DNA of 64,000 nucleotides from Clostridium sp. (GCA_052174015.1 JBQMXM010000004.1:10-64009), one strand, 5' to 3'; counted from the stretch's first letter, positions 2,351 to 35,545 are shown. Program-made: numbers and translations. The notes: a model not told the origin generated them from the letters alone.

Positions 2351-3103
2351 CTAATAATCTATTGCTGTTAATTTAAAATCTACATAATCTGAAGATATTA
2401 AATGTAATTTTACTCCCATATATTCTCCATTTATTGCTTCTTTATGTCCTTTTTCGTGTAAATGTCCATAGTAACATACTGGTATTTTAGCTTTAGTAAT
2501 AGTCTTCATAAAATTAACTTCATCTGATTCTTTAATATCTTCTCTCTCTATATTTTGTCTATCATTTGATTTTAAATATGGTGGATAATGCATAACACAT
2601 ATTTTAACTATTTTATTTTTCTCTTCATCACTCAAATTATTAATCTGTTTTTCCATATCTTCAATTGAATTTTGAAGACGGATATTTTCTCTTCTAATAT
2701 TTTTGTAATTTTCAATATCTTTTCTATCCCAACCTTTTGTTCCACATATAGCGTAATTTTCAATAATATATGCATTATTTTGCATAAATGAGATATTTTT
2801 AATATTATGCTTTTTTAAGAATTCTAAATTTTTAGTTACACTTACCCACCAATAATCATGATTACCTTTTAAAAATATTTTTTTACCAGGAAGAGAATCA
2901 ATATATTTAAAATCTTCTAATGCTTCATCAAGTGTCATAGCCCATGAAAAATCTCCTGCAAGTATTACAGTGTCTTCCATTTTAACTTTTTCTTTCCAAT
3001 CTTTTAATATTTTTGTTTCATGATTATTCCATTTTTCACCAAATATATTCATCGGCTTATTTACTCCAAACGATAAATGTAAATCTCCAATTATATATAC
3101 CAT
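2351..3103 (-). CDS. Calcineurin-like metallophosphoesterase
   Basis: N-terminal GDLH(L) motif, GNHDYWW and GHLH motifs of the metallophosphoesterase fold. Confidence 0.7.
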   Translation of the reverse strand: MVYIIGDLHLSFGVNKPMNIFGEKWNNHETKILKDWKEKVKMEDTVILAGDFSWAMTLDEALEDFKYIDSLPGKKIFLKGNHDYWWVSVTKNLEFLKKHNIKNISFMQNNAYIIENYAICGTKGWDRKDIENYKNIRRENIRLQNSIEDMEKQINNLSDEEKNKIVKICVMHYPPYLKSNDRQNIEREDIKESDEVNFMKTITKAKIPVCYYGHLHEKGHKEAINGEYMGVKLHLISSDYVDFKLTAIDY

Positions 3104-3118
3104 TTTTCCTCTTTCTAA

Positions 3119-4123
3119 CTAAATACCTATTGGTAAATTAGGTTTTGCGTCTATATCATATTTGCTAAACATATTATTAATATAGTAATAATATGCTTGT
3201 GCTCCTATCATTGCTGCATTATCTGTACATAATACTAATGATGGATAATATATATTAATATTCTCTGTTTTTAACTTATCAAATTCACTTCTAATATATG
3301 AGTTTGCAGAAACTCCTCCTGCTAATACTAACTTATTTAAATTTAAATCTGTTAATGCTTTTTTTGCTTTGTTTACTAATATTTCTGTTACTCTATGTTG
3401 AAAACTTGCACTTAAATCTGCTATATCAAGTTTTTCTTTACTATTATGATTTAAATTAATTATAGCTGTTTTTATTCCACTAAAACTAAAATCGTATCCA
3501 TCCACTTTAGGTATTGGTATTTTATCAATATATGTAGTTTTACCTTGTTTAGCAGCTTTATCTATTTTAGGCCCTCCTGGATATCCAAGACCTACAACGC
3601 GTGCTACTTTATCAAAAGCTTCACCTATTGCATCATCTTTTGTCCTACCTATAATATCAAATTTTGTATAATCTTTAACATGTACTAAATGTGTATGTCC
3701 ACCTGATACTATTAATGCTAAAAATGGTGGAGTAAGTTCTTTATACTCTATATAGTTTGCTGCAATATGCCCTTCTAAATGATGTACTCCAAGTAGTGGA
3801 ATATTATTCATATATGCAAATGTTTTAGCAAATGATACTCCAACAAGTAATGCTCCAACAAGACCAGGACCTTTTGTTACAGCTACTGCTGATATATCTT
3901 TAATAGTAATTCCTGCATCTTTAATTGCTTTATCAACTACATTTGAAATAGCTTCTATATGCATTCTTGAAGCTATTTCTGGTACAACTCCACCATATTT
4001 TTCATGTTCTGAAATTTGTGATGATATTATATTTGATAATACTTTTCTTCCATTTAAAACTATAGCACAAGATGTTTCATCACAACTTGATTCTATAGCT
4101 AATATATAGATGTTTTTCTCCAT
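3119..4123 (-). CDS. tsaD: tRNA N6-adenosine threonylcarbamoyltransferase TsaD
   Basis: ILAIESSCDETSCAIV N-terminus, GVHHLEGH metal-binding motif, Kae1/TsaD family length. Confidence 0.9.
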   Translation of the reverse strand: MEKNIYILAIESSCDETSCAIVLNGRKVLSNIISSQISEHEKYGGVVPEIASRMHIEAISNVVDKAIKDAGITIKDISAVAVTKGPGLVGALLVGVSFAKTFAYMNNIPLLGVHHLEGHIAANYIEYKELTPPFLALIVSGGHTHLVHVKDYTKFDIIGRTKDDAIGEAFDKVARVVGLGYPGGPKIDKAAKQGKTTYIDKIPIPKVDGYDFSFSGIKTAIINLNHNSKEKLDIADLSASFQHRVTEILVNKAKKALTDLNLNKLVLAGGVSANSYIRSEFDKLKTENINIYYPSLVLCTDNAAMIGAQAYYYYINNMFSKYDIDAKPNLPIGI

Positions 4124-4652: not shown

Positions 4653-5954
4653 TTAATTTTTTATACATAATAGTATATCTATTTCTTTATATTTTCTTTC
4701 AGCCTCTTTTATTTCATCTATTTTTTTAATGTTTAAGTCTGATATATTTAATATTTCATTAAATATTTTTTGTAATTGCTTTTGTTTATTAAGTATATCT
4801 TTTATATAGATTTTTGGTTTTTCATAATCTAATACTGTTATTTTTATATTTGTTTTATCACTTATTTTATTGTTTGTTTTATTATTTATTTGAATATTAC
4901 ATATTGGTCTAATCTTATTTTCTAATTTTTTAGATATTTTTTTATCTACATCTAATATATTTAATATACTTTTATCTATATTAGATATAGTATTTATATC
5001 ATCTATACCTCTATCTTTTTGTACATTATTAATATAGTTTAATAATATATTTTTAAAGTTATTTTTAAAATGATTAGTATTTGCATAATTACAATAATTA
5101 ATTTCTTTATCATTATATTCACCATAATGATATCCACTATATATAGCTATATCATCTGTAAATATTATTGGATATTCTTTTATTTCTACACTATTTTCTA
5201 ATTTACAATTAATTATATCATCATAATTTTTAAAATAATAATACATTTCTATTATATCTAAATTATACCAAATATTATCAACTAAAATTAAATTCCAAGC
5301 ATGCATTCCTTCTCCATTTTCATCTTTGTTATATCCTGTAATTATTGCAGAATCTAAATTTAAATATTTTGAAAGTACATAAAATATTATTGATATCCCT
5401 GAACATACAGCTTTTTTAATAATTATACTACCAAAAAGTGATAATTCAAATTCTCTAACATATTTTTCTGTATATTCATTAGTTAAGTATTTACTCATAT
5501 ATAGTCTATCTAAAGTATAATTAAATGATATATTTTCTATCATGTATTTTAATATATATCTTAGTTTTAATTTATCATTTATTTCTTTTTCATCTTTTAA
5601 TATTTGATTTTTAATATCTTCACCTACTTTAATATATTCTTTTAAAGATAATTTAAAATTTTTATAACTAATTGGCATTTTAAAAATTCCATCTATTTCA
5701 GTCAATATCACATTTATATCTATATTTAATTTATCTTGTATTTTATCTAATATTATAAAGTGTTTTTCTTGTATTTCAAAAATATCAAGTACAATAACCC
5801 TTATATTTAGTATATCATCATACTCTTTTTTTCTTTTACATATTTTTTCATATACTATATCATCTATTTTTTCTATATCTTCTTTAAACATCATTAATGT
5901 TTGTTTATCTACTTTTTTATCTACTTCTTCAATTATATCTTTTAATATTATCAT
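4653..5954 (-). CDS. Transglutaminase-like (papain-fold) domain protein
   Basis: Central Cys...His...Asp triad in the transglutaminase-like arrangement (AVCSGISIIF ... GMHAWNLILVD ... WYNLD). Flanked by low-complexity K/N/I-rich regions. Confidence 0.55.
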   Translation of the reverse strand: MIILKDIIEEVDKKVDKQTLMMFKEDIEKIDDIVYEKICKRKKEYDDILNIRVIVLDIFEIQEKHFIILDKIQDKLNIDINVILTEIDGIFKMPISYKNFKLSLKEYIKVGEDIKNQILKDEKEINDKLKLRYILKYMIENISFNYTLDRLYMSKYLTNEYTEKYVREFELSLFGSIIIKKAVCSGISIIFYVLSKYLNLDSAIITGYNKDENGEGMHAWNLILVDNIWYNLDIIEMYYYFKNYDDIINCKLENSVEIKEYPIIFTDDIAIYSGYHYGEYNDKEINYCNYANTNHFKNNFKNILLNYINNVQKDRGIDDINTISNIDKSILNILDVDKKISKKLENKIRPICNIQINNKTNNKISDKTNIKITVLDYEKPKIYIKDILNKQKQLQKIFNEILNISDLNIKKIDEIKEAERKYKEIDILLCIKN

Positions 5955-6053
5955 TAAATTCTCCTTTTAAAGATATTACTTTAATATATTAAATATATTA
6001 CTTGTACATATTACAAAAGAGGTTAATATTAACCTCTTCCTATTATATACAAC

Positions 6054-6359
6054 TTAGTTAAATAAATCTAATATATTTTGTTTTGATTGTACTCCAGATA
6101 TTCTGTTTAATTCTTTTCCGTCTTCATATGCTATAAATGTTGGAACAGATACTATTCCATTTTCTATTGCTAATTTATCAAATTTGTCTATATCTATTCT
6201 AATTACTTTGATATCTGTGTTGTTACCTATTTCTTCAATAACTGGAGTTACCATTTTACAAGGCATACACCATGTTGCAAAAAAGTTTAATATTACTTTT
6301 CCCTCTTTTTTTAATTCTTCTACTTGTTCTAATTCTTGTTCTTCTAATATTTTTAACAT
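6054..6359 (-). CDS. Thioredoxin with non-canonical WCMPC active site
   Basis: FFATWCMPCKM in a 101-aa thioredoxin-fold protein. Hairpin terminator GAGGTTAATATTAACCTC downstream. Confidence 0.8.
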   Translation of the reverse strand: MLKILEEQELEQVEELKKEGKVILNFFATWCMPCKMVTPVIEEIGNNTDIKVIRIDIDKFDKLAIENGIVSVPTFIAYEDGKELNRISGVQSKQNILDLFN

Positions 6360-6367
6360 AATCCCCC

Positions 6368-6892
6368 CTATTTTTCTAATGATTCATAAAATTCTTTTAT
6401 CTGATTTGCTTCTTTATATCCTACAGAATATTTAATAGCTTTTCCTTTTTTTATAGCAACTATTGTAGGCATTGCACGAATATTAAGTTTAGATGCAAGT
6501 TCTCTTTCTTTATCTACATCTATCTTATATATTGGTACACCTAGCTTTTTTGCTTTTGTAACTTCTGGTGTCATTCTAATACATGGACCACACCATGTTG
6601 CATAAAAATCTATTAATACTGTTTTATCTTCTTTAATTAAGTTCTCATATTTAGCTTTATCTAATTCTTCTACTATTGTATCTTCTTCTGCTTGTTCTGT
6701 TTGATTACTCTCTTCCTTTATATTTCTATCTAAATAACTTTTTGCGTTTTTTTGTGTTGTTACTTCTTGTTTTTTAGCAAAGATTTTTTCAGATAGATTT
6801 AATTTATTATATATTAATACTAAAATTAGTATTAGAGCAATAATTAATAATAATATAATTATTGTATTAAGTTTTTTGTTTTTTAATTTCAT
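6368..6892 (-). CDS. Membrane-anchored thioredoxin-domain protein (WCGPC)
   Basis: N-terminal TM helix, then FYATWCGPCIRM thioredoxin motif. Extracytoplasmic thiol-disulfide oxidoreductase type. Confidence 0.75.
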   Translation of the reverse strand: MKLKNKKLNTIIILLLIIALILILVLIYNKLNLSEKIFAKKQEVTTQKNAKSYLDRNIKEESNQTEQAEEDTIVEELDKAKYENLIKEDKTVLIDFYATWCGPCIRMTPEVTKAKKLGVPIYKIDVDKERELASKLNIRAMPTIVAIKKGKAIKYSVGYKEANQIKEFYESLEK

Positions 6893-6899
6893 ATTCCTC

Positions 6900-7559
6900 C
6901 TAATATATTGTAAGTAATACTTGTATTAATGAATATAGTCCACTTAATATTAATAATAATCCTGATAATATGTTGATTATATTATAATTTTGTTTAATTA
7001 TTTTAAATAATTTTTGTAACTTGCTAATAAATAATCCACTAAGTAACATAGGAATACCTATTCCAAGTGAAAACATAATTAAAAGAACTACTCCTTCTAT
7101 TAATGTTTTTGCTTCTGAAGCTTTTCCAAGTGCTGAAGCTAAATATGCTCCTGTACATGGTGAATATACTGCTCCAAAACCTAATCCAAATACAAGTGAT
7201 TCTAAATATGATAAATTTTCTTTTTGTTTTTTAGATGCCCTAAAATCTTTATTTAATATACCTATTCTAATTATTCCTGTATAATTTATACCTAATAATA
7301 TTATAAATATTGCAAAAAATATTTTTAAATATATTTGATATGCTCCAAATACCATAGTAAGTACATTTACAAGTACTCCTAGTATTACAAATACTATTGT
7401 AAATCCTAATATAAATAATAGGAGTTTTTTAATAAGTACTTTCATCTCTTGATTACCTTGTTTTGTAAAATACCCTAAAAGTATTGGTAACATAGGTAAT
7501 ATACATGGGGATATAAAACTAAGTATCCCCTCTAAAAAAACATATATGTAATTTAACAT
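6900..7559 (-). CDS. ccdA: Cytochrome c-type biogenesis/thiol-disulfide interchange membrane protein CcdA (DsbD family)
   Basis: Multi-TM protein with the two conserved Cys motifs (ISPCILPMLP and YSPCTGAYL) typical of CcdA. Confidence 0.85.
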   Translation of the reverse strand: MLNYIYVFLEGILSFISPCILPMLPILLGYFTKQGNQEMKVLIKKLLLFILGFTIVFVILGVLVNVLTMVFGAYQIYLKIFFAIFIILLGINYTGIIRIGILNKDFRASKKQKENLSYLESLVFGLGFGAVYSPCTGAYLASALGKASEAKTLIEGVVLLIMFSLGIGIPMLLSGLFISKLQKLFKIIKQNYNIINILSGLLLILSGLYSLIQVLLTIY

Positions 7560-7567
7560 ATTACTCC

Positions 7568-8107
7568 TTAATAATTTTCAGCCATTATTTCAAAATATGC
7601 TTTTGGATGTGAGCATACAGGGCATAAGTTTGGTGCTTCTTGTCCATAGTGAATGTGTCCACAATTTCTACATATCCAAACTAATTCTTCTCCTCTTTTA
7701 AACACCATATCATCTTCTATATTTTTTAAGAATTTTAAATATCTTTTTTCATGAGCTGATTCTACTTTTGCAACTCCATCAAATAATTTAGCTATATCTT
7801 CAAATCCTTCTTCTCTAGCTGTTTTAGCAAATTCATCATACATTATATTTACTTCATAATTTTCTCCATTTGCTGCATCTTTTAAATTTTCTGTTGTTGT
7901 TGGTATTGTACCACCATGTAATAATTTAAACCATAATTTAGCATGTTCTTTTTCATTTCTTGATGTTTCTTCAAACACACCTTTTATTTGTTCGTATCCT
8001 TCTTTTTTTGCTTTACTTGCATAGTATAAATATTTTACTGATGCTTGTGATTCTCCTGCAAATGCAGTCATTAAATTTTTCTCTGTTTTACTACCTTTTA
8101 ATTCCAT
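7568..8107 (-). CDS. rbr: Rubrerythrin
   Basis: N-terminal ferritin-like diiron domain (KTEKNLMTAFAGESQA) plus C-terminal rubredoxin-like CRNCG...CPVC. Confidence 0.9.
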   Translation of the reverse strand: MELKGSKTEKNLMTAFAGESQASVKYLYYASKAKKEGYEQIKGVFEETSRNEKEHAKLWFKLLHGGTIPTTTENLKDAANGENYEVNIMYDEFAKTAREEGFEDIAKLFDGVAKVESAHEKRYLKFLKNIEDDMVFKRGEELVWICRNCGHIHYGQEAPNLCPVCSHPKAYFEIMAENY

Positions 8108-8196
8108 AATTTTCTCCTTTTTAATTGATTTACTAAACTATAACAAAAAAAGTTACAGAAGTCAAGTACTGTAACTTTTATTTTTTATATTTTATT

Positions 8197-10572: not shown

Positions 10573-11388
10573 CTATCTTCCTACCCCCTTATAATCTAGA
10601 TAGATTACTTTCATTTGTTTTGTTGATTGTATATTTTTTGAGTTTGTTACTGTATATGTAATTGTATATGTTTTTCCTTTTTCCCATTTATCTATTGATA
10701 CATCTAATTCATATTTAATTTTTGAACTTATCTTTTTATCTTCCTTATCATATGCTTCTACTAATTTTAATGGTTCAAGTACAATTTTACCTTCACTACT
10801 TATTTTAGGTATAATTTCTCCTTTTGCTGTTAAAAATATATCTTCTTTAAGCCAAATAACTGGAGCATTGCCTAGTTTTTCTTCTTCTATATCTTTTCTT
10901 TTTAACTCTCCATTAGATAATGTATATTCATATATCCTCTCACTCCCACCATTATATTTAATCATATATATAAATGGGGCAGAAGTGTTATCTATCTCCA
11001 CTTTTTCATTTTTTAATTCATCTATTTTTTTAAGTTCTTTATTAATATTTAGTACTAATTCTTTTGTCTTTAATTCTGCATGTACATTATTTGTACTTTG
11101 AGTTGCTTTTAAAAGTTCTGTTCCTTTTAATTTATGTAAGTTTTCTTCTCTTTTTTGTATATATGTACTAATATATTGTTTAAGCTCTTCTTTTCTTAAT
11201 TCTTCTTCCTGAGATTTAGTTATTATACCTATTTTTTTAAATATTCTATACTTTTTTTGAGTTGGTACAGTAACATTAAATATATATATACATACTACTA
11301 ATATTAATAATATTATTATACATATATTAACTATCCCTATTTTCTTTTGTTTTTTGTTTGTATCTATTATTGTTTTTTGTTTTTCCAT
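10573..11388 (-). CDS. Membrane-anchored hypothetical protein
   Basis: N-terminal TM helix then a K/E-rich soluble domain. No recognisable motif. Confidence 0.4.
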   Translation of the reverse strand: MEKQKTIIDTNKKQKKIGIVNICIIILLILVVCIYIFNVTVPTQKKYRIFKKIGIITKSQEEELRKEELKQYISTYIQKREENLHKLKGTELLKATQSTNNVHAELKTKELVLNINKELKKIDELKNEKVEIDNTSAPFIYMIKYNGGSERIYEYTLSNGELKRKDIEEEKLGNAPVIWLKEDIFLTAKGEIIPKISSEGKIVLEPLKLVEAYDKEDKKISSKIKYELDVSIDKWEKGKTYTITYTVTNSKNIQSTKQMKVIYLDYKGVGR

Positions 11389-11410
11389 TTATACCTCTTA
11401 ATATTTACTA

Positions 11411-14400
11411 TTACATTCCCATCATATCAAAAATACTTGTTTGTGCTGTTTCTTGTATTCCATCTAGTGTTCCAAATTTATCTAATAATTCCATAGTAGA
11501 CTTACCTATCCTGCATTTATCTTTTACTTCTTCGCGTGTAAAAAATGAACCAAATTCTTCTTTTTCTGTTTTTGCAGCTAACGCTATTTGCTCTGCTGCT
11601 ACCGTTCCAAGTCCTGGTATTGAGTTTAATGGTGGTAAGATTGTATTTTCGTCTATCATTTTAAATTTCTTTGCATCTGATTCGTATAAGTCTATTGGTG
11701 CAAATTTAATTCCTCTTTTATACATTTCAAGTACTATTTCACAAATTGAATATACTCCCTTTTCTTTTACCCCCATTTTTGGTAATGCTTCTAATTCTTT
11801 CATTTTTTCTATTACTTTATCTTCTCCATAAATTAGAAAACTTGCGTCAAAATCTCCACCTGCTCTTACAGAAAAATATGCTGTATAATATGCAACTGGT
11901 TGATGTACTTTAAACCATGCAATCCTAAATGCGTTTGTAACATATGCAACTGCGTGTGCTTTTGGAAACATATATTTAATCTTGTTACATGAATCTATAT
12001 ACCATTGTGGAACATTATGTTTTGCCATTAATTCTTCCCATTCTGGTTTAAGTCCCTTACCTTTCCTTACTTTTTCCATTATATTAAAAGCTTCTTCTGG
12101 TGGTAATCCCATTGAAATTAAATATATCATTATATCATCTCTTGTACATATAGCTTCTGATAATGTTGCAATATTATTATTTACTAAATCTTGTGCATTA
12201 TTTAACCATACATCTGTCCCATGTGATAATCCAGATATTCTAATTAATTCTTCAAATGTTGTTGGTTTTGTATCAACTAACATCTCTCGTACAAAATGTG
12301 TACCAAATTCAGGTACTCCATATGTTCCAACTTGACTATTAATGTCTTCAGGTTTTAATCCAAGTGCTTCTGTTCCTGAAAATATTGACATTGTTTTTTT
12401 ATCATCTAATGCTATTTTAACTGGATTTATTCCTGTTAAATCTTGTAAATGTCTAATCATTGTAGGGTCTAAATGTCCTAATATATCTAATTTTAATAGA
12501 TTATGGTCTATTTTATGATAATCAAAGTGTGTTGTAATTATATCTGAATCTGATTTATCTGCTGGTTTTTGAATTGGACAAAATTCAAATATTGTTCTTC
12601 CTGCTGGTACTACAATAATTCCACCTGGATGTTGTCCTGTTGTTTTTTTGACTCCTTCAAATCCTTTTGCAAGTCTTGCAATCTCTACATTTGGTTTTTG
12701 AATTTCTTTATCATCAAAATATCCCTTTACATATCCAAATGCTGTTTTTTCTGCAATTGTTCCTATTGTACCGGCTTTAAATGTTGTACCATCACCTATT
12801 ATTTCTTCTGTATATTTATGTGCTTTTGATTGATATTCATCTGAAAAGTTAAGGTCAATATCTGGCTCTTTGTTTCCTGTAAATCCTAAGAATGTTTCAA
12901 AAGGTATATCCATACCATCTTTTACTAATTTTTCTCCACATACAGGACATGTTTTGTCTGGTAAATCAAATCCATTTAATATTCCAAAATCTGAAAAGTC
13001 TGAATATTTACATTTTTCACACCTATAATGTGGTTTAAGTGAGTTTACTTCTGTAATTCCTGTCATATATGCAACTAAACTTGAACCTACAGAACCTCTT
13101 GAACCTACTATATATCCGTCTTCATTTGATTTTTTAACTAATTTCTGAGCTATAATATACATTACCGAAAATCCATTATTGATTATTGAATCTAATTCTT
13201 TTTTTAGTCTTTTTTCAACTATTTCTGGTAATGGATTACCATATAGTTCATATGCTTTTGTATATGTTATGTCTCTAATTGTATCTTCACAACCTTCAAT
13301 ATATGGTGTTGCTTTATCTTTTGATATTGGATAAATTTCATCATCTATCATATCTGTAATTATATTTGTATTTGTAACAACTATTTCATATGCTTTGTCT
13401 TTCCCTAAAAATTCAAATTCTTCTAGCATTTCTTCTGTTGTTTTAAAAGATAAATCTGGTTGTATACTTGCATTTTTCTTTTTTTGTCCTACATGTAATA
13501 TTTCTCTATATATCTTATCTTCAGGGTCTAAAAAATATACATCTCCAATTGCAACCACTTTCTTTTCTAATTTTTCACCTAATTCTACTATTTTTTTAAT
13601 AATATTTTTAGCATCTTCTAAACTCTTATATGTTCCTAATTCAACCTTACTTTTTAAACTTATAGGTGTTGGAACTTCTAAATAATCATAATATTTTGCG
13701 ATTTCCAATAATTCTTCTTCTGTTTTTCCACCTTCAATTGCACTAAATAGTTCTCCATTTGAATTACCACTTCCAATAATAAGGCCATCCTTATATTTAT
13801 TAAATAATGTTTTAAGTATTCTTGGTCTCATATAGTAATGATATATATGTGAGTATGATATAAGTTTATATAGGTTTGTGATTCCCACTTGTTTTGTTAC
13901 AAGTATTGTTGCATTTGCTGTTGGATATTTTTTGTATGCATCCTTATTATCTGCCCATTTTTCATCAAATTCATTCCATTTAATAATTCCTTTGGCAGAT
14001 ATTCTTTTAATCATATCTTCAAACACTTTAATTAATGTTTTAACGTCATCTAAGGCTCTATGTGCAACTTCTACTTTAATATTTAAATATTCTGCAATCT
14101 TACCTAACCTATATCTTGATAATTCAGGATATATTTGTTTTGCAAGTCTTAATGTATCAATATACATATTATCAAATGTATATCCTAATAATTTTGCATT
14201 ATGTCTAATAAACCCTATATCAAAATCTGCATTATGTGCAACAAGTATTGTTCCCTTAATAAATTCCATAACTTTAGGCATTACTTCATCTATTTTAGGT
14301 GCATCTTTTACCATTTCATCTGTAATGTGAGTTACTTCAACAACTTCTTTTGGTATTGGCATTTCTGGATTTACAAATGTTTCAAATGTATCAATTATTT

Positions 14401-25782: not shown

Positions 25783-28700
25783 TTATTCATCATAGAAATT
25801 ATTTTTTTTCATCTTATATAATTGGTTCATTTCTATTTGCATTTTTTGTTGTTCTTCAGAATTTACTGTATTTAATATATATCCATAATCATCTAAATTA
25901 AAGAATGGTTTTCTTTCTTGATTATAGTATGCATCTATTGTTCTTGAAAATTCTTCTGTCTGTGTATAATTTTGTGGTTGTAATTGTGGCTTTATATTAT
26001 TTTGTTTAGGATAGTTTTGATATTGTTCTGACATATTTGATATTAATTGTTGTACACTATTTGAATTTTGAAGATTATCTATATTTTGTTGCATATTTGT
26101 ACTTATTTCTTCTAAATTAATATTTGGTACACTTTTTTGTCTATAATATTTTTCTAAATCGTCTTCTTCCTCTTCTAATTTTTTCCTATATTTTTCTTCT
26201 TGTTCTTGTCTAATTTGCATTTCTTGTAATAGTTGTCTTTTAAGCTCATTTTCTTTTTGTAATGCAATTTTTTTAGCTTCTTGTTCTATTCTTTTAGCTA
26301 TCTCTTGTTCTTGCCTAATTTTATCAATCTCTATTTGTGCTATTCTTTCTGCTTCTGCTTTGATTTTTAAATTAATAGCTTCTTGTTCTTCTTGTTTTTT
26401 TCTTGCTTCAGCTTCTAATTTTTGTCTTAGTAATTCTTCTTGTTCCTTTTGTTTTAATCTTTCTTCTTCTAACTTTTGTCTTAACTTTTCTTCTTCTTCA
26501 AGTCTTTTTGCTTCTTCATTAGCTATTTTAATTCTTAATTCTTCTTCTTTTGCAATTCTTAATTTTTCAAGTTCTGCATTTTTTCTTCTTAATTCTTCTA
26601 ATTCTTTTTCTTGTCTTCTTTGCCTAATTTTAGAAAGTTTTTCTTCTTCTTCTCTTTTCTTTCTTAATTCTTCATCTATTTTTCTTCTATGAATTGTTTC
26701 TGTATATTCTTTTAATGAATTACTTAAATTATCTAAATCAAATTCAAAATTTTGTTCTTCTTGTTCTTTTACATTATCTAAAATATTATTAAACTTGTTT
26801 ATTTTATTTATTTTCTTTTCTTCTTGTATTTGCTTTTCTTTTAATTCTTCTACTAATACTTTTATTTTTTCTTGTTCTACTTCTTCGGTTTCTTCTGTTT
26901 CTTCTATTTCTAAAGCTTCTTCTTTAATTTCTATATTATCTTCATTAATGTCTTTTATTTTTGTATTTTCTGGATTTTCTATATTATCTACATTTTCTAT
27001 ACTTAAACCATATATATTATTTAGATTATCTGAATCATTTTTATTATCTGCTTCTGATACTTCTTCGTCTATATTATCATCACTAAGCCCTAGTTCTTCT
27101 AAATCTTTTTTGTATTCTTCATCTTTGTATTCATATTTTGGTTCTACTACTTCATTTTGTAATTCTTGATTTTTTTCTTCTATTTTTTCTTTTGGTTCTA
27201 TTTCTTCTGTTTCTATTATTATTTTATGCTTATATTTTTCATTTACTTCTATCTCTTTTTCTTGTCTAATTACACTTCTACATACTTTTTCTGCTTCTTC
27301 TTCTGATACTTTTTTGTTTCCAAGTATTGATAATACTTGTATATATATGTAGTCTTTTTTATCTAATGTTTGTAAGTCTTTTTCTAATGATGTATTATAT
27401 AGTATTTTTTTAAGATTTTCTTTTATCTTAATTAAACTATAATTATAGTCTGCTTTTATATATATTAATTCTTTTTTTACTATACCATATTCTAAAATTT
27501 CTTCTAATATATTGTTATATATTTCTTTTGTTTCATCATCAAAAATCCCATATTCTTTTTCTAAATATTTTGAATATTCACTACTTATAATTACTTGTGC
27601 TAAATATTCTTTAGGTACTTTTGACATATCACTTTCATTTGTATTATATTTTTCAAAAAACTTATCTTGTGTTAATTTTAATATTTGTACTGTAATTTCT
27701 TCATTATTGTATTTTAAGAATTTTAATCTTTTTTCTAATGTTTCTGGACTAAGTCCAAGTACTGATATATTTTGAATTACAGAGTCTAACATATCATATT
27801 CTATTAGTAAATCTAAGTTTGTCTGTATATTTGAAACAGGCTTTATAAATAGAGACAATGAATTTTTAAGTTCATTTATTAACCCTACACTTTCAAGAAA
27901 TGTATAAATTTGTTCCATATTATCTGCTTTTCCTTTAGCAAATATTATACCTGGTATTTCTACTTCTGGATTATCTAATAGATTTTTGCTCTTTAAAAAT
28001 TCTTTTACTTCATCTATTGATTCTACATTTCCTGTTGTTAATATTGTACTACTTTTTTCTAATATTTCTTTACCAATTCCATTATCTTGTTGTTCTTCTT
28101 TTTCTAATTTGTCTAAAATTTGTGTGATATTTTCTGGATTTCCTTTAATTAGTATAAATGCATTATTTAATATATTTCTTGATAATCCTCTATCATCTAT
28201 TTCTTGTACTATTTCTTCTATATTTTTAGCATTTCCATTTAAATATACATTAACATTTTCTAATATTTCTTTATTTAAACCATATTTTACAAATACTGTT
28301 TGAATTTTTAATATATTATTAGGTTCTTGTATTGTTAGTATTTGTGGATTTCTTTCTATATAATTACTATCTTCTATTTTTTCAAATATATCTATTACAT
28401 TAATCACATTATTTGGTGTATTTTTTAATACATATTGTGGATATTTATATATATATTCTTTATCTATTTTTTCTTTTTCTACAGCTTCTATATATTCAAT
28501 GATTGTATTTAAATCTATACTAATTACTAATTTAAAATTATCTTCTAATACGTTTTTGAATATATCTTCAAATTCTTCTAAGTATCTTATTTTTTTGATT
28601 AATTTACTTAATTCTATTGTATCATACATTAATACTTCTGAATTTTTTGATATTTCTTCTTTTGATATATTTAATTGTTTTAATATTGCAATTATATTTT

Positions 28701-29463
28701 CTATATCTTTTGTCTCATTTTCATATACTATTTCAGGGCTTTTTTGTAATATATTTTTTTCTATACCATTTCTATCAAACATATTTAATATTGCTTGCAC
28801 CCTTATTTTTGTAGTATATGCAAGTATTTGTGGATTTTTCTTAATAATTTGTAATCCTAGTTTTTCTTTTGGATTAGTATATAGTAATAATAATTCTTTT
28901 ACTACATTTGCTGTATTTAAATAGAATACTTTTGGACATTTTTTAAGTATCACTTTTTCAATCTCGTATTCTTCTAATACTTTAAATATTTTAGAGATTT
29001 CTGTTGCATCTCCATATGCTAAAATATCCCCATTATTTTTAAAATATTCTAATCCTAATCCTTTTTCTTTAAAAATTTTTAGTATTTTTAATATATTTTC
29101 ATCTTTCCCAACACCTATTACTTCTGGAAATTTTTCTAATATCTGTAATGTTATATCTTTGTTTTTAACTAATGCAGATATTTTTTGTATCCTTACCCTA
29201 TTTGTTCTTTCAAAAATTTCAGGATTTTTTTCTAATAATGATATTGGTAATTCTGATTCTTTAAATTGCTCTATTACATTTTTAACTTTACTAGACTTTA
29301 TATTTAATACTTGTGGATAATTACTAATTAAACTAATTGTTAGCTTTTTTTGTTTAATTATTTCAATTATATCTAAAGCATTTTGTCTATCTTCTAATTC
29401 AATCCCTAACTTTATAATTATTTTATCTAATATATTTTCATATTGATTGACTTTTTTAGTCAT
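25783..29463 (-). CDS. Giant cytoplasmic repeat protein: about 15 mTERF-like Pro-containing helical repeats, E/R/K-rich predicted single helix, Q/N-rich C-terminus
   Basis: No signal peptide. About 33-aa repeats with a conserved Pro (…KNPQILAYTTKIRVQAILNMF…, …KFPEVIGVGKDENILKILKIF…). About 160 aa of EEEKLRQKLEEERLKQKEQEELLRQKLEAEARKK-type sequence, then NLQNSNSVQQ...QLQPQNYTQ. Antisense plus-strand ORFs here are low-complexity artefacts. Confidence 0.6.
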   Translation of the reverse strand: MTKKVNQYENILDKIIIKLGIELEDRQNALDIIEIIKQKKLTISLISNYPQVLNIKSSKVKNVIEQFKESELPISLLEKNPEIFERTNRVRIQKISALVKNKDITLQILEKFPEVIGVGKDENILKILKIFKEKGLGLEYFKNNGDILAYGDATEISKIFKVLEEYEIEKVILKKCPKVFYLNTANVVKELLLLYTNPKEKLGLQIIKKNPQILAYTTKIRVQAILNMFDRNGIEKNILQKSPEIVYENETKDIENIIAILKQLNISKEEISKNSEVLMYDTIELSKLIKKIRYLEEFEDIFKNVLEDNFKLVISIDLNTIIEYIEAVEKEKIDKEYIYKYPQYVLKNTPNNVINVIDIFEKIEDSNYIERNPQILTIQEPNNILKIQTVFVKYGLNKEILENVNVYLNGNAKNIEEIVQEIDDRGLSRNILNNAFILIKGNPENITQILDKLEKEEQQDNGIGKEILEKSSTILTTGNVESIDEVKEFLKSKNLLDNPEVEIPGIIFAKGKADNMEQIYTFLESVGLINELKNSLSLFIKPVSNIQTNLDLLIEYDMLDSVIQNISVLGLSPETLEKRLKFLKYNNEEITVQILKLTQDKFFEKYNTNESDMSKVPKEYLAQVIISSEYSKYLEKEYGIFDDETKEIYNNILEEILEYGIVKKELIYIKADYNYSLIKIKENLKKILYNTSLEKDLQTLDKKDYIYIQVLSILGNKKVSEEEAEKVCRSVIRQEKEIEVNEKYKHKIIIETEEIEPKEKIEEKNQELQNEVVEPKYEYKDEEYKKDLEELGLSDDNIDEEVSEADNKNDSDNLNNIYGLSIENVDNIENPENTKIKDINEDNIEIKEEALEIEETEETEEVEQEKIKVLVEELKEKQIQEEKKINKINKFNNILDNVKEQEEQNFEFDLDNLSNSLKEYTETIHRRKIDEELRKKREEEEKLSKIRQRRQEKELEELRRKNAELEKLRIAKEEELRIKIANEEAKRLEEEEKLRQKLEEERLKQKEQEELLRQKLEAEARKKQEEQEAINLKIKAEAERIAQIEIDKIRQEQEIAKRIEQEAKKIALQKENELKRQLLQEMQIRQEQEEKYRKKLEEEEDDLEKYYRQKSVPNINLEEISTNMQQNIDNLQNSNSVQQLISNMSEQYQNYPKQNNIKPQLQPQNYTQTEEFSRTIDAYYNQERKPFFNLDDYGYILNTVNSEEQQKMQIEMNQLYKMKKNNFYDE

Positions 29464-30248: not shown

Positions 30249-31553
<1,305 letters not shown>

Positions 31554-31657
31554 TTACTAATTTAATATTAACATATAATATATTTAAAGTAAATATATCA
31601 CAGTATATATTAGCTATATATATTTATAAAACACTAACATATTTAACAAAAATATAT

Positions 31658-31702
31658 AAAAACTATTATTTGCTAATTCTACTTAACATAATAATAGTTT
31701 TT
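31658..31702 (-). terminator. Hairpin terminator downstream of GlyRS copy 1 (part of a conserved 75-80-nt element)
   Basis: AAAAACTATTAT...ATAATAGTTTTT stem with the loop ACTTAACATAAT. About 85% identical to the element at 33372-33452. Confidence 0.55.
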
Positions 31703-31744
31703 ATCTTCTTATATATTACTTATTTTATTTTAAATTATTTTAAA

Positions 31745-33118
31745 CTATTTTAACTTATTTAAAATATATTCTTCTATTTCACTTATTTTAATTGTTTCTT
31801 GTTGCATACTATCTCTATCTCTAATAGTTACTTCATTATTTTTTAAAGTATTGTCGTCTACTGTAACTACATATGGAGTACCATTTATATCTTGTCTCCT
31901 ATATCTTTTTCCAATACTACCACTTTCGTCATAATCAACTGTAACTATTTTTGCAAGTTCTAAATATAGTTTTTTAGCATATTCTGAATGCTTATTTTTT
32001 AATAATGGTAATACTGCCAACTTATATGGTGCAATTTTAGGATTGAATTTCATAACTATTCTAGTAGTTCCGTCTTCTAATTCTTCTTCATTATATGCTT
32101 CATAAAGTAATGCTAAAGTTGCTCTATCTGCTCCAACTGTTGATTCAACAATATATGGTATGAATTTTTCTTTAGTTTCTTCATCTAAATATTCCATACT
32201 TTTACCAGAATATTCTTGATGTTGTGTTAAATCATAATCTGTTCTATCATGTGTACCATTTATTTCTCCATATCCAAATGGGAATAAATATTCTATATCA
32301 CATGCTGCTTTTGCATAAAAAACTAATTTGGCATGGTCCATAAATCTTAATTTTTCAGTAGGTAAACCAATGTCATTAAAAAACTTTAATGCATAATCTT
32401 TATAAAATTCATAAAGTTTTAAATCTTCTCCCGGTTTACAAAATGTTTGAAATTCCATTTGTTCAAATTCTATTGTTCTAAATGTTAAATTTCCAGGTGT
32501 AACTTCATTTCTAAAAGCTTTACCAATTTGCCCTATACTAAATGGTAATTTTGCTCTTGAACTTCTTAAAACATTTAAATAATTTACATATTCTCCTTGT
32601 GCATTTTCTGGACGTAAATATATAATATTTTTATTTTCTTCAAGAGTACCTCTATATGTTTCAAACATTTGACTAAATTTTCTAACTTTAGTAAAGTCTT
32701 GTCCTCCACAATGTGGACACTTTCCATTATTCTCTTTTATATATTCTTCCATTTCATCATAACTAAGTGCTTCCCCATTTACTGTACCATTAGATAATTT
32801 ATCTATATATTTATCTACTCTTATTCTTGCCTTACATTTCTTACAATCCATTTTAGGGTCATAAAATGATGCGACATGTCCTGATGCTTTCCAAACTCTA
32901 GGATGCATTAATATATTTGCATCTATTTCATATGAATTCATTTGTTCTTGAATAAATCTTTTTCTCCAAGCGTCTTTTAAATTATTTTTTATTCTACTTC
33001 CTAAAGGTCCATAATCCCATGTATTTGCTAATCCTCCATAAATATCTGACCCTGGATAAATATATCCATATTGTTTACAAAAAATTGCCATTTGTTCTAT
33101 ATTTAATTTCTTTTCCAT
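31745..33118 (-). CDS. glyQS: Glycine--tRNA ligase (alpha2 dimeric class II type), copy 1
   Basis: [25 protein letters not shown]-terminus, motif 2 FRNEVTPGNLTFRTIEFEQME, motif 3 VGADRATLALL. Confidence 0.93.
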   Translation of the reverse strand: MEKKLNIEQMAIFCKQYGYIYPGSDIYGGLANTWDYGPLGSRIKNNLKDAWRKRFIQEQMNSYEIDANILMHPRVWKASGHVASFYDPKMDCKKCKARIRVDKYIDKLSNGTVNGEALSYDEMEEYIKENNGKCPHCGGQDFTKVRKFSQMFETYRGTLEENKNIIYLRPENAQGEYVNYLNVLRSSRAKLPFSIGQIGKAFRNEVTPGNLTFRTIEFEQMEFQTFCKPGEDLKLYEFYKDYALKFFNDIGLPTEKLRFMDHAKLVFYAKAACDIEYLFPFGYGEINGTHDRTDYDLTQHQEYSGKSMEYLDEETKEKFIPYIVESTVGADRATLALLYEAYNEEELEDGTTRIVMKFNPKIAPYKLAVLPLLKNKHSEYAKKLYLELAKIVTVDYDESGSIGKRYRRQDINGTPYVVTVDDNTLKNNEVTIRDRDSMQQETIKISEIEEYILNKLK

Positions 33119-33367
33119 AAAATTCTCCTAATTACTGTATTTATATTTTAAATATTTATTATATTATTATATTATTATCTTATTATTTTGTTTTAAAATT
33201 TTTATACATAAATGCCGAGAATTTTTTCCCAATGATATATTAATATTTTTTTAATTTTAACTTTAACTTTTTCTTTCATAAATTTCTCACTTAATTACTT
33301 AATTATATACATGATACTATAATATGAGTTAAAAAGCAACTTATATAAAATTAAATATATTGGAAAG

Positions 33368-33382
33368 TTGTAGAAAACACAA
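33368..33382. repeat. Dispersed palindromic intergenic motif TTGTAGAAAA(C/T)ACAA (copies also at 25671-25685, 39215-39229, 41050-41064)
   Basis: Inverted repeat TTGTA-N5-TACAA (perfect at 39215 and 41050, CACAA variant at 33368 and 25671). Always intergenic, 85-130 nt downstream of a minus-strand stop. Two copies flank metG. Confidence 0.5.
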
Positions 33383-33404
33383 ACATATTTGACAGAAATA
33401 TATA

Positions 33405-33452
33405 AAAAGCTATTATTAGTTAATATTACTTAACATAATGATAGCTTTTTTT
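33405..33452 (-). terminator. Hairpin terminator downstream of GlyRS copy 2 (conserved element, second copy)
   Basis: AAAAGCTAT...ATAGCTTTT stem with the same ACTTAACATAAT loop, flanked by T-runs. Confidence 0.55.
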
Positions 33453-33470
33453 CTTATTTTCTTTTATTTT

Positions 33471-34847
33471 TTATTGTTTTAAATTATTATTTAAATATTC
33501 TACTAAATTTTTAATTTCTACTCTTTCTTGCTCCATAGTATCTCTATCTCTTACAGTTACTTTTCCATCTTTTTCAGTATCAAAATCTACAGTTACACAA
33601 TATACTGTACCTATTTCATCTTGTCTTCTATATCTTTTTCCAATACTTCCTGTTTCATCATATGTAGTCATAAATTCTTTTTGTAATAAAGTATATACAT
33701 CATCTGCTTGTTCACTTAATTGTTTTGAAAGTGGTAATACAGCAACTTTGTATGGTGCAAGTCTTTTATCTAATTTTAATACGACTCTTGTATCTTCTCC
33801 AACTTTTTCTTCATTATATGCATCTGCTAAAAATGCTAAAAATACTCTGTCACATCCAACTGATGGCTCTATAACATGTGGTATAAATTCTGTACCATCT
33901 AATCTTTTAACTGCCATTGATACTTTTGAATAATTTTGGTGTTGTGTTAAATCATAGTTTGTTCTATTTGCAATTCCCCATAATTCTCCCCAACCAAATG
34001 GAAATAGGTATTCTATATCAATAGTACCTGCACTATAATGTGATAATTCTTCTTTTTCATGTGGTCTTTTTCTAATATTTTTTTCTGTCATACCATGATT
34101 TAATAACCAATCAAAACAATAGTTATGCCAATATTCAAACCAATCTTCTTTAGTTTCTGGATCAAAGAAAAATTCTAATTCCATTTGTTCAAATTCTCTA
34201 GTTCTAAAAATAAAGTTACCTGGTGTTATCTCATTTCTAAAACTTTTACCTATTTGTGCAATACCAAATGGTAATTTTCTTCTTGTTGTTCTTAAAGCAT
34301 TTTTAAAGTTTGTAAAAATACCTTGTGCTGTTTCTGGTCTTAAATATACTTCTGATTTTTTATCTTCTGTTACTCCTTGAAATGTTTTAAACATTAAATT
34401 AAATTTACGTATATTTGTATAGTTTAAAGCTCCACATTTTGGACACACTATATTATTTTCTACTATATAATTATACATTTTTTCATCTGACCAACCATCT
34501 GCAATTCCATTAATTCCATTTTGAAACATCCATTCTTCAATAAGTTTGTCTGCTCTATGTCTTGTTTTACATTCTTTACAATCCATTAATGGGTCTGTAA
34601 AATTTGCTAAATGTCCTGACGCTTCCCATGTTTTAGGATTCATTAATATTGCTGCATCTAAGCCTACATTATATTTACTTTCTTGTACAAACGCTTTTTT
34701 CCATTCAGCTTTTACATTATTTTTTAATTCTAATCCTAGAGGTCCATAATCCCATGTATTTGCAAGCCCACCATAAATATCTGAGCCTGGATATACAAAT
34801 CCTTTTTCTTTTGCAAATATCATTAATTTTTCCATATTTTCTATCAT
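33471..34847 (-). CDS. glyQS: Glycine--tRNA ligase (alpha2 dimeric class II type), copy 2 (divergent paralog)
   Basis: [24 protein letters not shown], motif 2 [21 protein letters not shown], motif 3 [11 protein letters not shown]. Full-length, roughly 55-60% identical to copy 1 by eye. Confidence 0.93.
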
Positions 34848-34976
34848 ATCTTACCTCTCTTATTTAAAAATTTATCTAAAACAACTTATTGTATGTTATA
34901 ATTATATATATATAATATACAAACAAATTAAAAACATAATCAACAAGTAATAGACACTAATTTAATATTAACATAA

Positions 34977-35005
34977 AGTATAGATGTTGTAAAGACATCT
35001 ATACT
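34977..35005 (-). terminator. Hairpin terminator downstream of rlmH
   Basis: AGTATAGATG-ttgtaaaga-CATCTATACT 10-bp stem, followed by a modest U-run on the minus strand. Confidence 0.5.
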
Positions 35006-35065
35006 TTAATTTACAGTTATTTATTATATATTATTTATTTTGTTTTTAAATTTTTATTTTAAAAA

Positions 35066-35545
35066 TCATTTATGATATGTTTCATTATTTAATATTTTGA
35101 ATCCCCTATAAATTTGTTCTAGTAATACTACTCTCATTAATTGATGTGGTAATGTTATTCTACCAAAAGATATCATCTTATTAGATTCTTTTTTTAATCT
35201 TTCCATTATTCCTAGTGAACCACCAATTATATAGACTATTTCTGAATATCCATTTATAGATATATCATTAATGTCTTTGGCTATTTCTTCAGATGTTACA
35301 AGCTTTCCTTCTATTGCTAATGAAATTATATATTCTTTTCCTTTTATGTGTTTTAAAATTTTACTCGCTTCTTTTTTAAGTATTTGTTCTTTTTCTTTTT
35401 GTTTTGCATTTTCTGGTATTTTTTCATCTTGCACTTCTATTATTTCTACCTTAGAATATTTGTTAATTCTTTTAGTATATTCTTTAATTGCACTTTTCAA
35501 ATATTCTTCTTTTAGTTTACCAACTGTAATTATTTTAATTTTCAA
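35066..35545 (-). CDS. rlmH: 23S rRNA (pseudouridine1915-N3)-methyltransferase RlmH
   Basis: 159 aa SPOUT-fold; MKIKIITVGKLKE...IIGGSLGI...ISFGRITLPHQLMRVVLLEQIYR, characteristic of RlmH/YbeA. Confidence 0.9.
   Translation of the reverse strand: MKIKIITVGKLKEEYLKSAIKEYTKRINKYSKVEIIEVQDEKIPENAKQKEKEQILKKEASKILKHIKGKEYIISLAIEGKLVTSEEIAKDINDISINGYSEIVYIIGGSLGIMERLKKESNKMISFGRITLPHQLMRVVLLEQIYRGFKILNNETYHK

Follow-up and report, generated by a model that had tools for sequence, protein, structure and literature searches.

A putative terminator element duplicated on either side of a second, different-clade glycine–tRNA ligase gene in an AT-rich oral Clostridium

The 64,000-nt stretch of Clostridium sp. 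DNA analyzed here (GCA_052174015.1, JBQMXM010000004.1:10-64009; hereafter the window) comes from an uncultured, very AT-rich mouth bacterium and carries two tandem genes for alpha2-type glycine–tRNA ligase (GlyRS), glyS-A and glyS-B. Each is followed by a copy (R1 and R2, respectively) of a noncoding element, R, that is more alike between the two genes than the genes are themselves. We consider it reasonably probable that R is a duplicated intrinsic-terminator module lying on either side of an inserted, foreign-clade glyS-B, and that the identity of its copies reflects their youth together with selection on the hairpin. The similarity of R1 and R2 would then be the result of later local copying, and therefore not of conservation since glyS-A and glyS-B diverged (the A/B split).

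In the nhmmer alignment, R1 and R2 match in 67 of 77 columns (87%), or in 72 of 82 columns with the CTACA tail that strain L177 keeps; about 11% of the aligned sites are different, and there are two indels. When the spacers that follow the two glyS genes were aligned locally, the score was 117, compared with a mean of 41.4 (sd 6.3, maximum 68) in 1000 dinucleotide shuffles. A preliminary description of this DNA had put the identity of the 3' elements at ~85%, which agrees with these values, and had allowed that the flanks might be no more alike than AT-rich DNA is by chance; the observed score lies far outside the shuffled range. The same description held that the element outstrips the coding sequence in conservation, and this is borne out by the coding alignment, in which the best 78-nt window (the most conserved N-terminal motif) reaches 84.6% and none reaches 85%. 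The last coding windows before the stop codons are 68-72% identical and not raised, so a gene-conversion tract entering the coding 3' ends was rejected. Past the 3' end of R we found no homology, with 760 of 1000 shuffles scoring equally and the glyS-B leader unrelated to the sequence after R2; a shared promoter in this position, suspected by eye, was rejected on the same shuffles.

The genes have diverged much further. BLASTP puts the two proteins at 51% identity and a MAFFT alignment of 451 codons at 52%, below the 55-60% first estimated, and the coding DNA is 65.6% identical over the same codons. Four-fold degenerate sites agree at 62%, which barely exceeds the 53% expected from composition, so that the silent sites are essentially saturated. 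In a joint tree, glyS-A and glyS-B fall into two deep, well-populated GlyRS clades (the A and B clades). The best matches of glyS-A are at 99% identity (same species), followed by 80%, 78% and many at 68-77%, and those of glyS-B are at 100% and 98% (same species), followed by 75%, 71-72% and then hundreds at 62-69%, with 69% being the best among GTDB representative genomes. The few relatives of glyS-B with a source name, and likewise the genome records that matched it, are metagenome-assembled genomes (MAGs) of Clostridia, Bacilli or ‘Tenericutes’.

Gene order in the closest A-type relatives indicates where glyS-B came in. In two loci whose GlyRS is 80% identical to glyS-A (L004 and L005), obg stands immediately behind the only glyS, and then come a lexA-like and an mTERF-like gene, which is the order of the window without glyS-B; three loci at 78% (L006-L008) have a single glyS, one small open reading frame (ORF) and then obg. 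Because these relatives carry a lone glyS followed by obg, we read glyS-B as an insertion between the resident glyS-A and obg. R1 and R2 are accordingly direct repeats around a segment missing from the syntenic site of the relatives, which are too distant for the empty site to be aligned. On the question of one versus two GlyRS genes in relatives, raised in the preliminary description, the nearest A-type loci have one, and a second GlyRS within 4-6 kb was found in none of 80 genome loci of B-clade relatives of glyS-B and in none of 80 metagenome loci of glyS-A relatives. The sole other case is a lineage (L009-L012) with an A-type then B-type tandem at a different locus.

R itself was confined to this species in our searches. 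With nhmmer, matches were limited to the window and the same-species contigs L001 and L002, with none in the relatives L003-L012, including the other tandem lineage, and no R was seen when the 3' flanks of two further B-type loci (L093 and L094) were inspected by eye. Spacers of the 80% A-type relative are unalignable with those of the window (883 and 545 of 1000 shuffles score equally), which shows that neutral spacer decays far faster than the A/B distance; an apparent spacer homology with this relative seen by eye (GTGTTTT...GCTAATAT) was rejected by the same shuffles. Since R is absent in all relatives examined, it is not anciently conserved but a feature of this lineage alone that postdates the A/B split. 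The argument first made for the element, that neutral DNA would have diverged beyond recognition and that R must have been selectively maintained since the genes diverged, presumes that R is as old as that split, and so does not carry over.

These data also bear on an ancient tandem duplication of a [glyS + flank] unit, in which the flank was selectively conserved while the proteins fell to 51% identity. The repeats are indeed in register with the genes, and there is a weak similarity upstream of both (repeat Y, described below, with a score reached by 2 of 1000 shuffles). However, glyS-A and glyS-B are each far closer to genes of other organisms than to each other, R is absent behind those relatives, and the A-only relatives retain the adjacency of glyS and obg. 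We regard such a duplication as extremely improbable, and already contradicted.

The first part of R is a hairpin that starts 20 nt past the glyS-A stop codon and 42 nt past that of glyS-B. Read on the minus strand, it is laid out as an A-run, a nearly all A-U hairpin of ~20 bp with a loop of ~6 nt, and a U-run (UUUUUAUAUAUUU); the sequence first described as an identical loop, ACTTAACATAAT, is mostly one stem arm. Fold energies are -13.9 kcal/mol for R1 and -14.3 kcal/mol for R2, with z-scores of -3.6 (minus strand) and -5.9 (plus strand) for R1 and -4.4 for R2, and an overall range of -3.6 to -6.3. Seven differences separate the two hairpins, all of them structure-neutral or compensatory. 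From R1 to R2, both arms have lost their half of one G-C pair, U-A replaces a C·A mismatch and G·U replaces an A-U pair; the other changes lie in the loop (two) and at the bulge (one). Chimeras with arms swapped between R1 and R2 fold at -10.5 and -10.9 kcal/mol, 3-4 kcal/mol weaker than the native hairpins, and R1 mutants with an equal number of random changes average -5.2 kcal/mol, with 0.9% of them matching the stability of R2. Because the seven differences spare the fold, the chimeras are weaker and so few random mutants are equally stable, we conclude that the hairpin has been selected for stability.

Both copies combine a stable stem-loop with a U-tract, and both stand behind a stop codon with a promoter-like site before the next gene (33339..33311 and 31593..31565). 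The stem is not G+C-rich, having only 1-2 G-C pairs, which is plausibly an adaptation to a genome of 24% GC. We predict that the R hairpin is an intrinsic terminator, its activity being judged from its structure. Among the functions that the preliminary description offered for the element, a terminator is the one that agrees with these results, in that the hairpin is of the terminator type and its structure is under selection.

Same-species contigs allow the age of the copying to be bracketed. The tandem of glyS-A and glyS-B recurs in independent assemblies, namely L001 (a 69-kb contig from a human oral metagenome) and L177, and since these have the same order, and the window and L001 differ at synonymous sites by 0.08-0.24, the tandem is not an assembly artefact. 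The R1 sequence is identical in the window, L001 and L002, and no stem change was found across six R copies, five of them complete and one partial. All ten R1/R2 differences are shared by the window and L001, where both copies are complete, and R2 of L177 and R1 of L002 agree. With these ten differences fixed across strains, gene conversion is not ongoing and the copying is older than the strain split; the gene-conversion tract considered in the preliminary description is thus excluded as a continuing process. Spacer mismatch between the window and L001 amounts to ~2% (17 of 788 nt, three spacers summed). If R evolves like other spacers, the copying is several times older than the strain split, yet far more recent than the separation from the A-only relatives.

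A single past event of conversion is a different matter. In this alternative, glyS-B is a long-standing resident and one gene conversion or patch replacement, unrelated to insertion, overwrote one of the two terminators. Its composition would fit, as glyS-B is fully ameliorated to the host and its best donor candidate is at 75% identity, and so would the A-B tandem of the second lineage and the position of R, which lies in equal register behind both stop codons with a repeat spacing of 1729-1747 nt along the whole unit. On the other hand, the coding 3' ends are no more than ~72% identical, R1 and R2 have no exact run in common longer than 13 nt, which does not suffice to start RecA-type conversion, and the fixed R1/R2 differences show no concerted evolution since the strain split. 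Patch replacement and duplication at insertion are indistinguishable on present data, the former being disfavored only by the scant flanking homology, and we hold it to be an unlikely, if equally mechanical, explanation.

In the same contigs, the part of R downstream of the hairpin behaves differently. In L001, R2 has two changes, non-compensatory and located in both arms of a palindrome, and in L177, R1 has a cluster of three changes past the palindrome, where the block ends distally. The ~35-nt downstream block is drifting and is not visibly constrained. This matters for the proposal that R is a dedicated cis-regulatory module coordinating both GlyRS genes, either a terminator combined with an operator at the palindrome or a source of plus-strand antisense or small RNA. 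In both copies the block does contain an 8-5-8 palindrome (ATATATTT-CTGTC-AAATATGT in R1, at 33403..33383) and a T-rich end; the palindrome arms are the same in R1 and R2 of the window, with both differences inside the 5-nt spacer, and R1 is unchanged in three strains. In addition, a plus-strand TTGACA-N16-TATTAT at 33389-33416 is the best promoter match of the region (11 of 12 positions). Against this, the block varies by strain as described, 16 similar AT palindromes occur in the window, no Rfam family matches, and R is missing from all relatives including the other tandem lineage. The R2 counterpart of the plus-strand site has TTAACA as its -35 hexamer and a 15-nt spacer, and since 36 promoter-like sites were found where 32.4 are expected in shuffles of such 24% GC DNA, the match is unremarkable. 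We therefore do not retain the operator or small-RNA function first suggested for the block, and consider a coordinating module of this kind unlikely.

A further possibility is that R is one of many short repeats carrying a terminator (REP-, MITE- or Correia-like) and dispersed over the genome. R is short, hairpin-bearing, sharp-edged and lineage-specific, and the site past R1 may differ in structure between strains, judging from L002. Yet the search for further copies suggested at the outset recovered just the two known ones in the 64-kb window (pattern search with up to three mismatches, and nhmmer --max) and none elsewhere in it, each directly behind a glyS stop codon. No terminal inverted repeats or target duplications were seen at the ends of R on reading by eye, and a pattern scan of viral contigs found no copy of R. 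Membership in a dispersed family is in our view very unlikely.

L002, a contig of the same species that encodes the same glyS-A protein as L001, fully diverges from the window and L001 ~25 nt past R1. Its end (7490-7599) is unrelated to both and carries a -10-like motif (TGGTAAAAT), a pair of small hairpins and a Shine-Dalgarno sequence. Strains may differ structurally behind the glyS-A terminator, or the end of this contig may be chimeric.

Taking these results together, we favor duplication of R around an inserted glyS-B. The order glyS-A, R1, leader and glyS-B, R2, obg reads as the signature of a cassette flanked by duplicated recipient sequence, here the glyS-A terminator region. In this scenario, glyS-B with its own ~250-nt leader would have been installed between glyS-A and obg, and R, the putative intrinsic terminator of glyS plus ~35 nt, would now form an ~82-nt direct repeat around the cassette, with R1 terminating glyS-A and R2 terminating glyS-B. 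The two copies would have been derived one from the other within the lineage, long after the A/B divergence and most likely concurrently with the installation of the cassette, so that duplication of R and insertion of glyS-B were probably one event. Since then, selection for a stable stem would have kept the hairpin as the downstream block drifted. R would insulate glyS-A, glyS-B and obg as three transcription units, every one of them preceded by a promoter-like site, and the glyS-A, R, obg order of the relatives would return if R1 and R2 recombined. We infer that glyS-B was acquired horizontally from a similarly AT-rich donor.

Several points weigh against this scenario. A consensus terminator scan did not call R, which it misses because it requires at least three G-C pairs. 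No donor of glyS-B closer than 75% was present among 5.8 billion proteins, and its G+C content at third codon positions (GC3) of 0.098 is exactly host-like, so that glyS-B may have been resident for long and have had its terminator exchanged at a later time. The second tandem lineage leaves a possible older A-B pair from which B was lost in the A-only relatives. Even the nearest relatives stand far off (obg is 62% identical in amino acids), which makes the empty site unalignable and the insertion undatable. In the cassette there is no mobility gene (integrase or transposase), the R1-R2 interval comprising only the glyS-B ORF and a 25-codon small ORF (sORF). A target duplication of ~80 nt would be unusually long, and the copy count of R covers only 64 kb of the genome.

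Both enzymes look functional. Against the NCBIfam equivalog NF003211 (glycine–tRNA ligase; cutoff 312), glyS-A scores 670 bits and glyS-B 583 bits. Among 237 homologues, 151 columns show at least 97% conservation; glyS-A retains 148 of them and glyS-B 147, the latter departing at just four (F211L, E263A, K375N and F392V). This supports the initial description of two full-length alpha2-type ORFs with intact motifs. The top solved-structure (PDB) match is a GlyRS (E = 4e-113), and the glyS-B protein is 100% identical to a database entry (P0121) named ‘MAG: glycine--tRNA ligase [Clostridium sp.]’, although looking up either protein by exact sequence gave no match. Between the window and strain L001, the ratio of nonsynonymous to synonymous polymorphism (pN/pS) is 0.05 for glyS-A and 0.11 for glyS-B, and both genes are under purifying selection, which indirectly backs the predicted glycylation of tRNA-Gly by both. 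A function specific to the paralogue was to be doubted, in the preliminary description, if the second copy were absent from relatives and carried inactivating changes; the first holds for the nearest A-type relatives, and glyS-B looks functional. There is no compositional trace of recent transfer in glyS-B, as its GC matches that of glyS-A and the neighboring genes and its GC3 is the same as that of glyS-A.

The relatives of glyS-B occupy changing contexts. In its closest relative (L093; 75% identity, 24% GC), the gene is preceded by an unrelated gene rather than a GlyRS; other B-subclade genes are placed differently again in L094, L096 and L009-L012. In L096, a genome of ~50% GC, a B-type GlyRS gene (69% identical to glyS-B) lies between two 99.9% identical IS256-type insertion sequence (IS) copies with the Transposase_mut domain. 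These copies (2396-3583 and 11225-12412) are in direct orientation and enclose ~7.6 kb in which sugar-nucleotide enzymes and a Fic protein are also encoded, surroundings that resemble a composite transposon. Among plasmid-borne sequences, no glyS-B relative exceeded 53% identity. The tree, the synteny of A-type glyS with obg and the L096 setting together mark glyS-B as a second, divergent copy of a foreign clade beside the housekeeping one. From the changing surroundings, the two occurrences in tandem behind an A-type gene and the one between IS256-type copies, it could be supposed that glyS-B belongs to a mobile ‘auxiliary’ GlyRS subclade that host-associated Firmicutes keep against a natural GlyRS inhibitor or for a stress role; this is a speculative idea to which we give a low probability. 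If it were true, recombination between the direct repeats R1 and R2 would make loss or amplification of the cassette possible. The neighboring genes of the window and L001 gave no hint of an inhibitor gene cluster. Back-up, stress-specific and inhibitor-resistant enzymes, as well as a transient stage of xenologous replacement, are candidates for the role of glyS-B.

Two further arrangements were encountered among the relatives. Just upstream of the B-type GlyRS gene of L094 are two truncated aminoacyl-tRNA synthetase (aaRS)-like paralogues, one of 344 aa with a tRNA-synt_2 match (392-1426) and one of 330 aa that is tRNA-synt_2c-like (4690-5682). In L003, a 702-aa A-clade GlyRS ORF (6001-8109) is followed in frame by a second partial GlyRS segment of ~256 aa, the result of either tandem duplication within the gene or faulty assembly.

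The coordinates of the region are collected in Table 1. The window has a G+C content of 23.8%, and the genes around the glyS pair are all on the minus strand, in the order mreB, ychF, a TPR protein gene, rlmH, glyS-A, glyS-B, obg and genes for a LexA-like protein and a 1226-aa repeat protein; those nearby are housekeeping genes (mreB, ychF, rlmH, obg and the lexA-like gene).

Table 1. Features of the glyS region in window coordinates
Feature	Position	Strand	Content or basis
rlmH	35545..35066	-	ORF
Promoter-like site before glyS-A, TTTACA-N17-TGT-TAATAT	34993..34956 (hexamers 34993..34965)	-	holds X1
X1, exact 20-mer TATGTTAATATTAAATTAGT	34975..34956	-	same 20-mer as X2
glyS-A, resident alpha2-type glycine–tRNA ligase, 458 aa, A clade	33471..34847	-	ORF
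R1, 3' element of glyS-A	33369..33450	-	hairpin 33450..33404 (47 nt) and downstream block 33403..33369 (35 nt)
glyS-B leader, left part of the putative inserted cassette	33119..33368	-	promoter-like site, 25-codon sORF, Shine-Dalgarno AGGAG; read from sequence
Promoter-like site before glyS-B, TTGCTT-N17-TATCAT	33339..33334 and 33316..33311	-	read from sequence
glyS-B, second alpha2-type glycine–tRNA ligase, 457 aa, B clade, between glyS-A and obg	31745..33118	-	ORF
R2, 3' element of glyS-B	31623..31702	-	hairpin 31702..31658 (45 nt) and downstream block 31657..31623 (35 nt)
Promoter-like site before obg, TTTACT-N17-TGT-TAATAT	31593..31556 (hexamers 31593..31565)	-	holds X2
X2, exact 20-mer TATGTTAATATTAAATTAGT	31575..31556	-	two copies of the 20-mer in the window
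obg, ancestral downstream neighbor of glyS-A, right side of the putative insertion	30249..31526	-	order in relatives

Upstream of the genes, the -35 hexamer of the glyS-A promoter-like site sits in the loop of the rlmH terminator hairpin (35008..34974). Local alignment of the sequences preceding glyS-A and obg gives a score of 50, reached by 0 of 1000 shuffles, and the X1/X2 sites may represent a duplicated or shared promoter module. An A-rich repeat, Y (ATAAAAATTT[T]AAAACAAAATAA), occurs upstream of both GlyRS genes (35011-35057 and 33159-33205) with 74% identity, and may be just low-complexity sequence. The 25-codon ORF in the glyS-B leader (MKEKVKVKIKKILIYHWEKILGIYV, 33279..33202, minus strand) contains one Gly codon; in L001 it has two non-synonymous and no synonymous changes, and it is probably not a conserved peptide.

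No stable 5' fold was found in the glyS-B leader (z = +0.59) or in the 5' region of glyS-A (z = -1.07). The absence of a T-box leader noted in the preliminary description is confirmed: at the gathering score, no Rfam family (tRNA, rRNA, riboswitch or T-box) was detected in the whole 64-kb window, and neither a T-box nor any other family appeared in 31400-35200 at E<=10. No T-box was found upstream of glyS in 11 related loci scanned either, so its absence is normal for these clades. Two B-type genes of another subclade (L009, 5779-6000; L094, 5897-6000) share a strong TTGACT-N17-TGGTAAAAT promoter followed by a two-hairpin leader without an Rfam match, which could be a conserved 5' regulatory leader other than a T-box. 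That 64 kb of the window should be empty of Rfam families is itself unusual for a Firmicute region of such size. The 1226-aa protein (25783-29463, minus strand) has N-terminal helical repeats of ~35 residues and a long E/K/Q-rich low-complexity tail; its L004 orthologue has a faint mTERF Pfam match, and in relatives the gene also adjoins the lexA-like gene.

The locus illustrates how a flank can outdo its gene in conservation without a special function, when old genes of different clades are combined with a young local copy of the flank. This is a caution for scans based on sequence only, and the biological content is modest, being ordinary genome history rather than a new regulatory element. 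The tandem is nevertheless a clean example of an apparently functional GlyRS of a foreign clade that seems to have been inserted beside the resident one. If glyS-B were inhibitor-resistant or stress-specific, it would hint at a hitherto undescribed GlyRS-targeting natural product or at a further case of conditional aaRS use, in oral bacteria.

In comparison with known systems, the R hairpin resembles intrinsic terminators of AT-rich Firmicutes in having a U-run after it and an A-run before it (the ‘bidirectional’ shape), in its position 20-42 nt past the stop codon, and in a stem stability preserved through compensatory change. It differs in its long (~20 bp), nearly pure A-U rather than G+C-rich stem, missed by the consensus scan. 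R1 and R2 are also like the direct repeats that flank insertions (target-site or junction duplications, Campbell-type) in that a short native sequence surrounds a gene absent in relatives. Unlike these, at ~82 nt R far exceeds the target duplications of transposons, the cassette between its copies has no recombinase or IS, and the copies have already diverged by 12-13%. The classic model of the Firmicute T-box leader is B. subtilis glyQS (RF00230), with which the glyS loci share only the position upstream of a GlyRS gene, the T-box itself being absent.

Auxiliary or xenologous aaRS copies include IleRS2/mupM, thrZ and tyrZ of B. subtilis and the cyanobacterial ThrRS T2. The glyS-B locus differs from such cases in lacking a visible inhibitor cluster, T-box or other conditional control, and is like them in placing a divergent, apparently functional enzyme of the same specificity beside the housekeeping one. 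GlyRS is reported as one of the aaRS families of greatest stability, in contrast to families that often have paralogues (PMC5388404), and the sole duplicated GlyRS listed in a 2022 review as still charging tRNA is that of yeast, GlyRS2 (PMC9437257). A second bacterial alpha2 GlyRS is thus uncommon, yet of a known sort, the auxiliary aaRS xenologue, and the simplest account of glyS-B is horizontal transfer, through which aaRS paralogues chiefly arise (PMC5388404).

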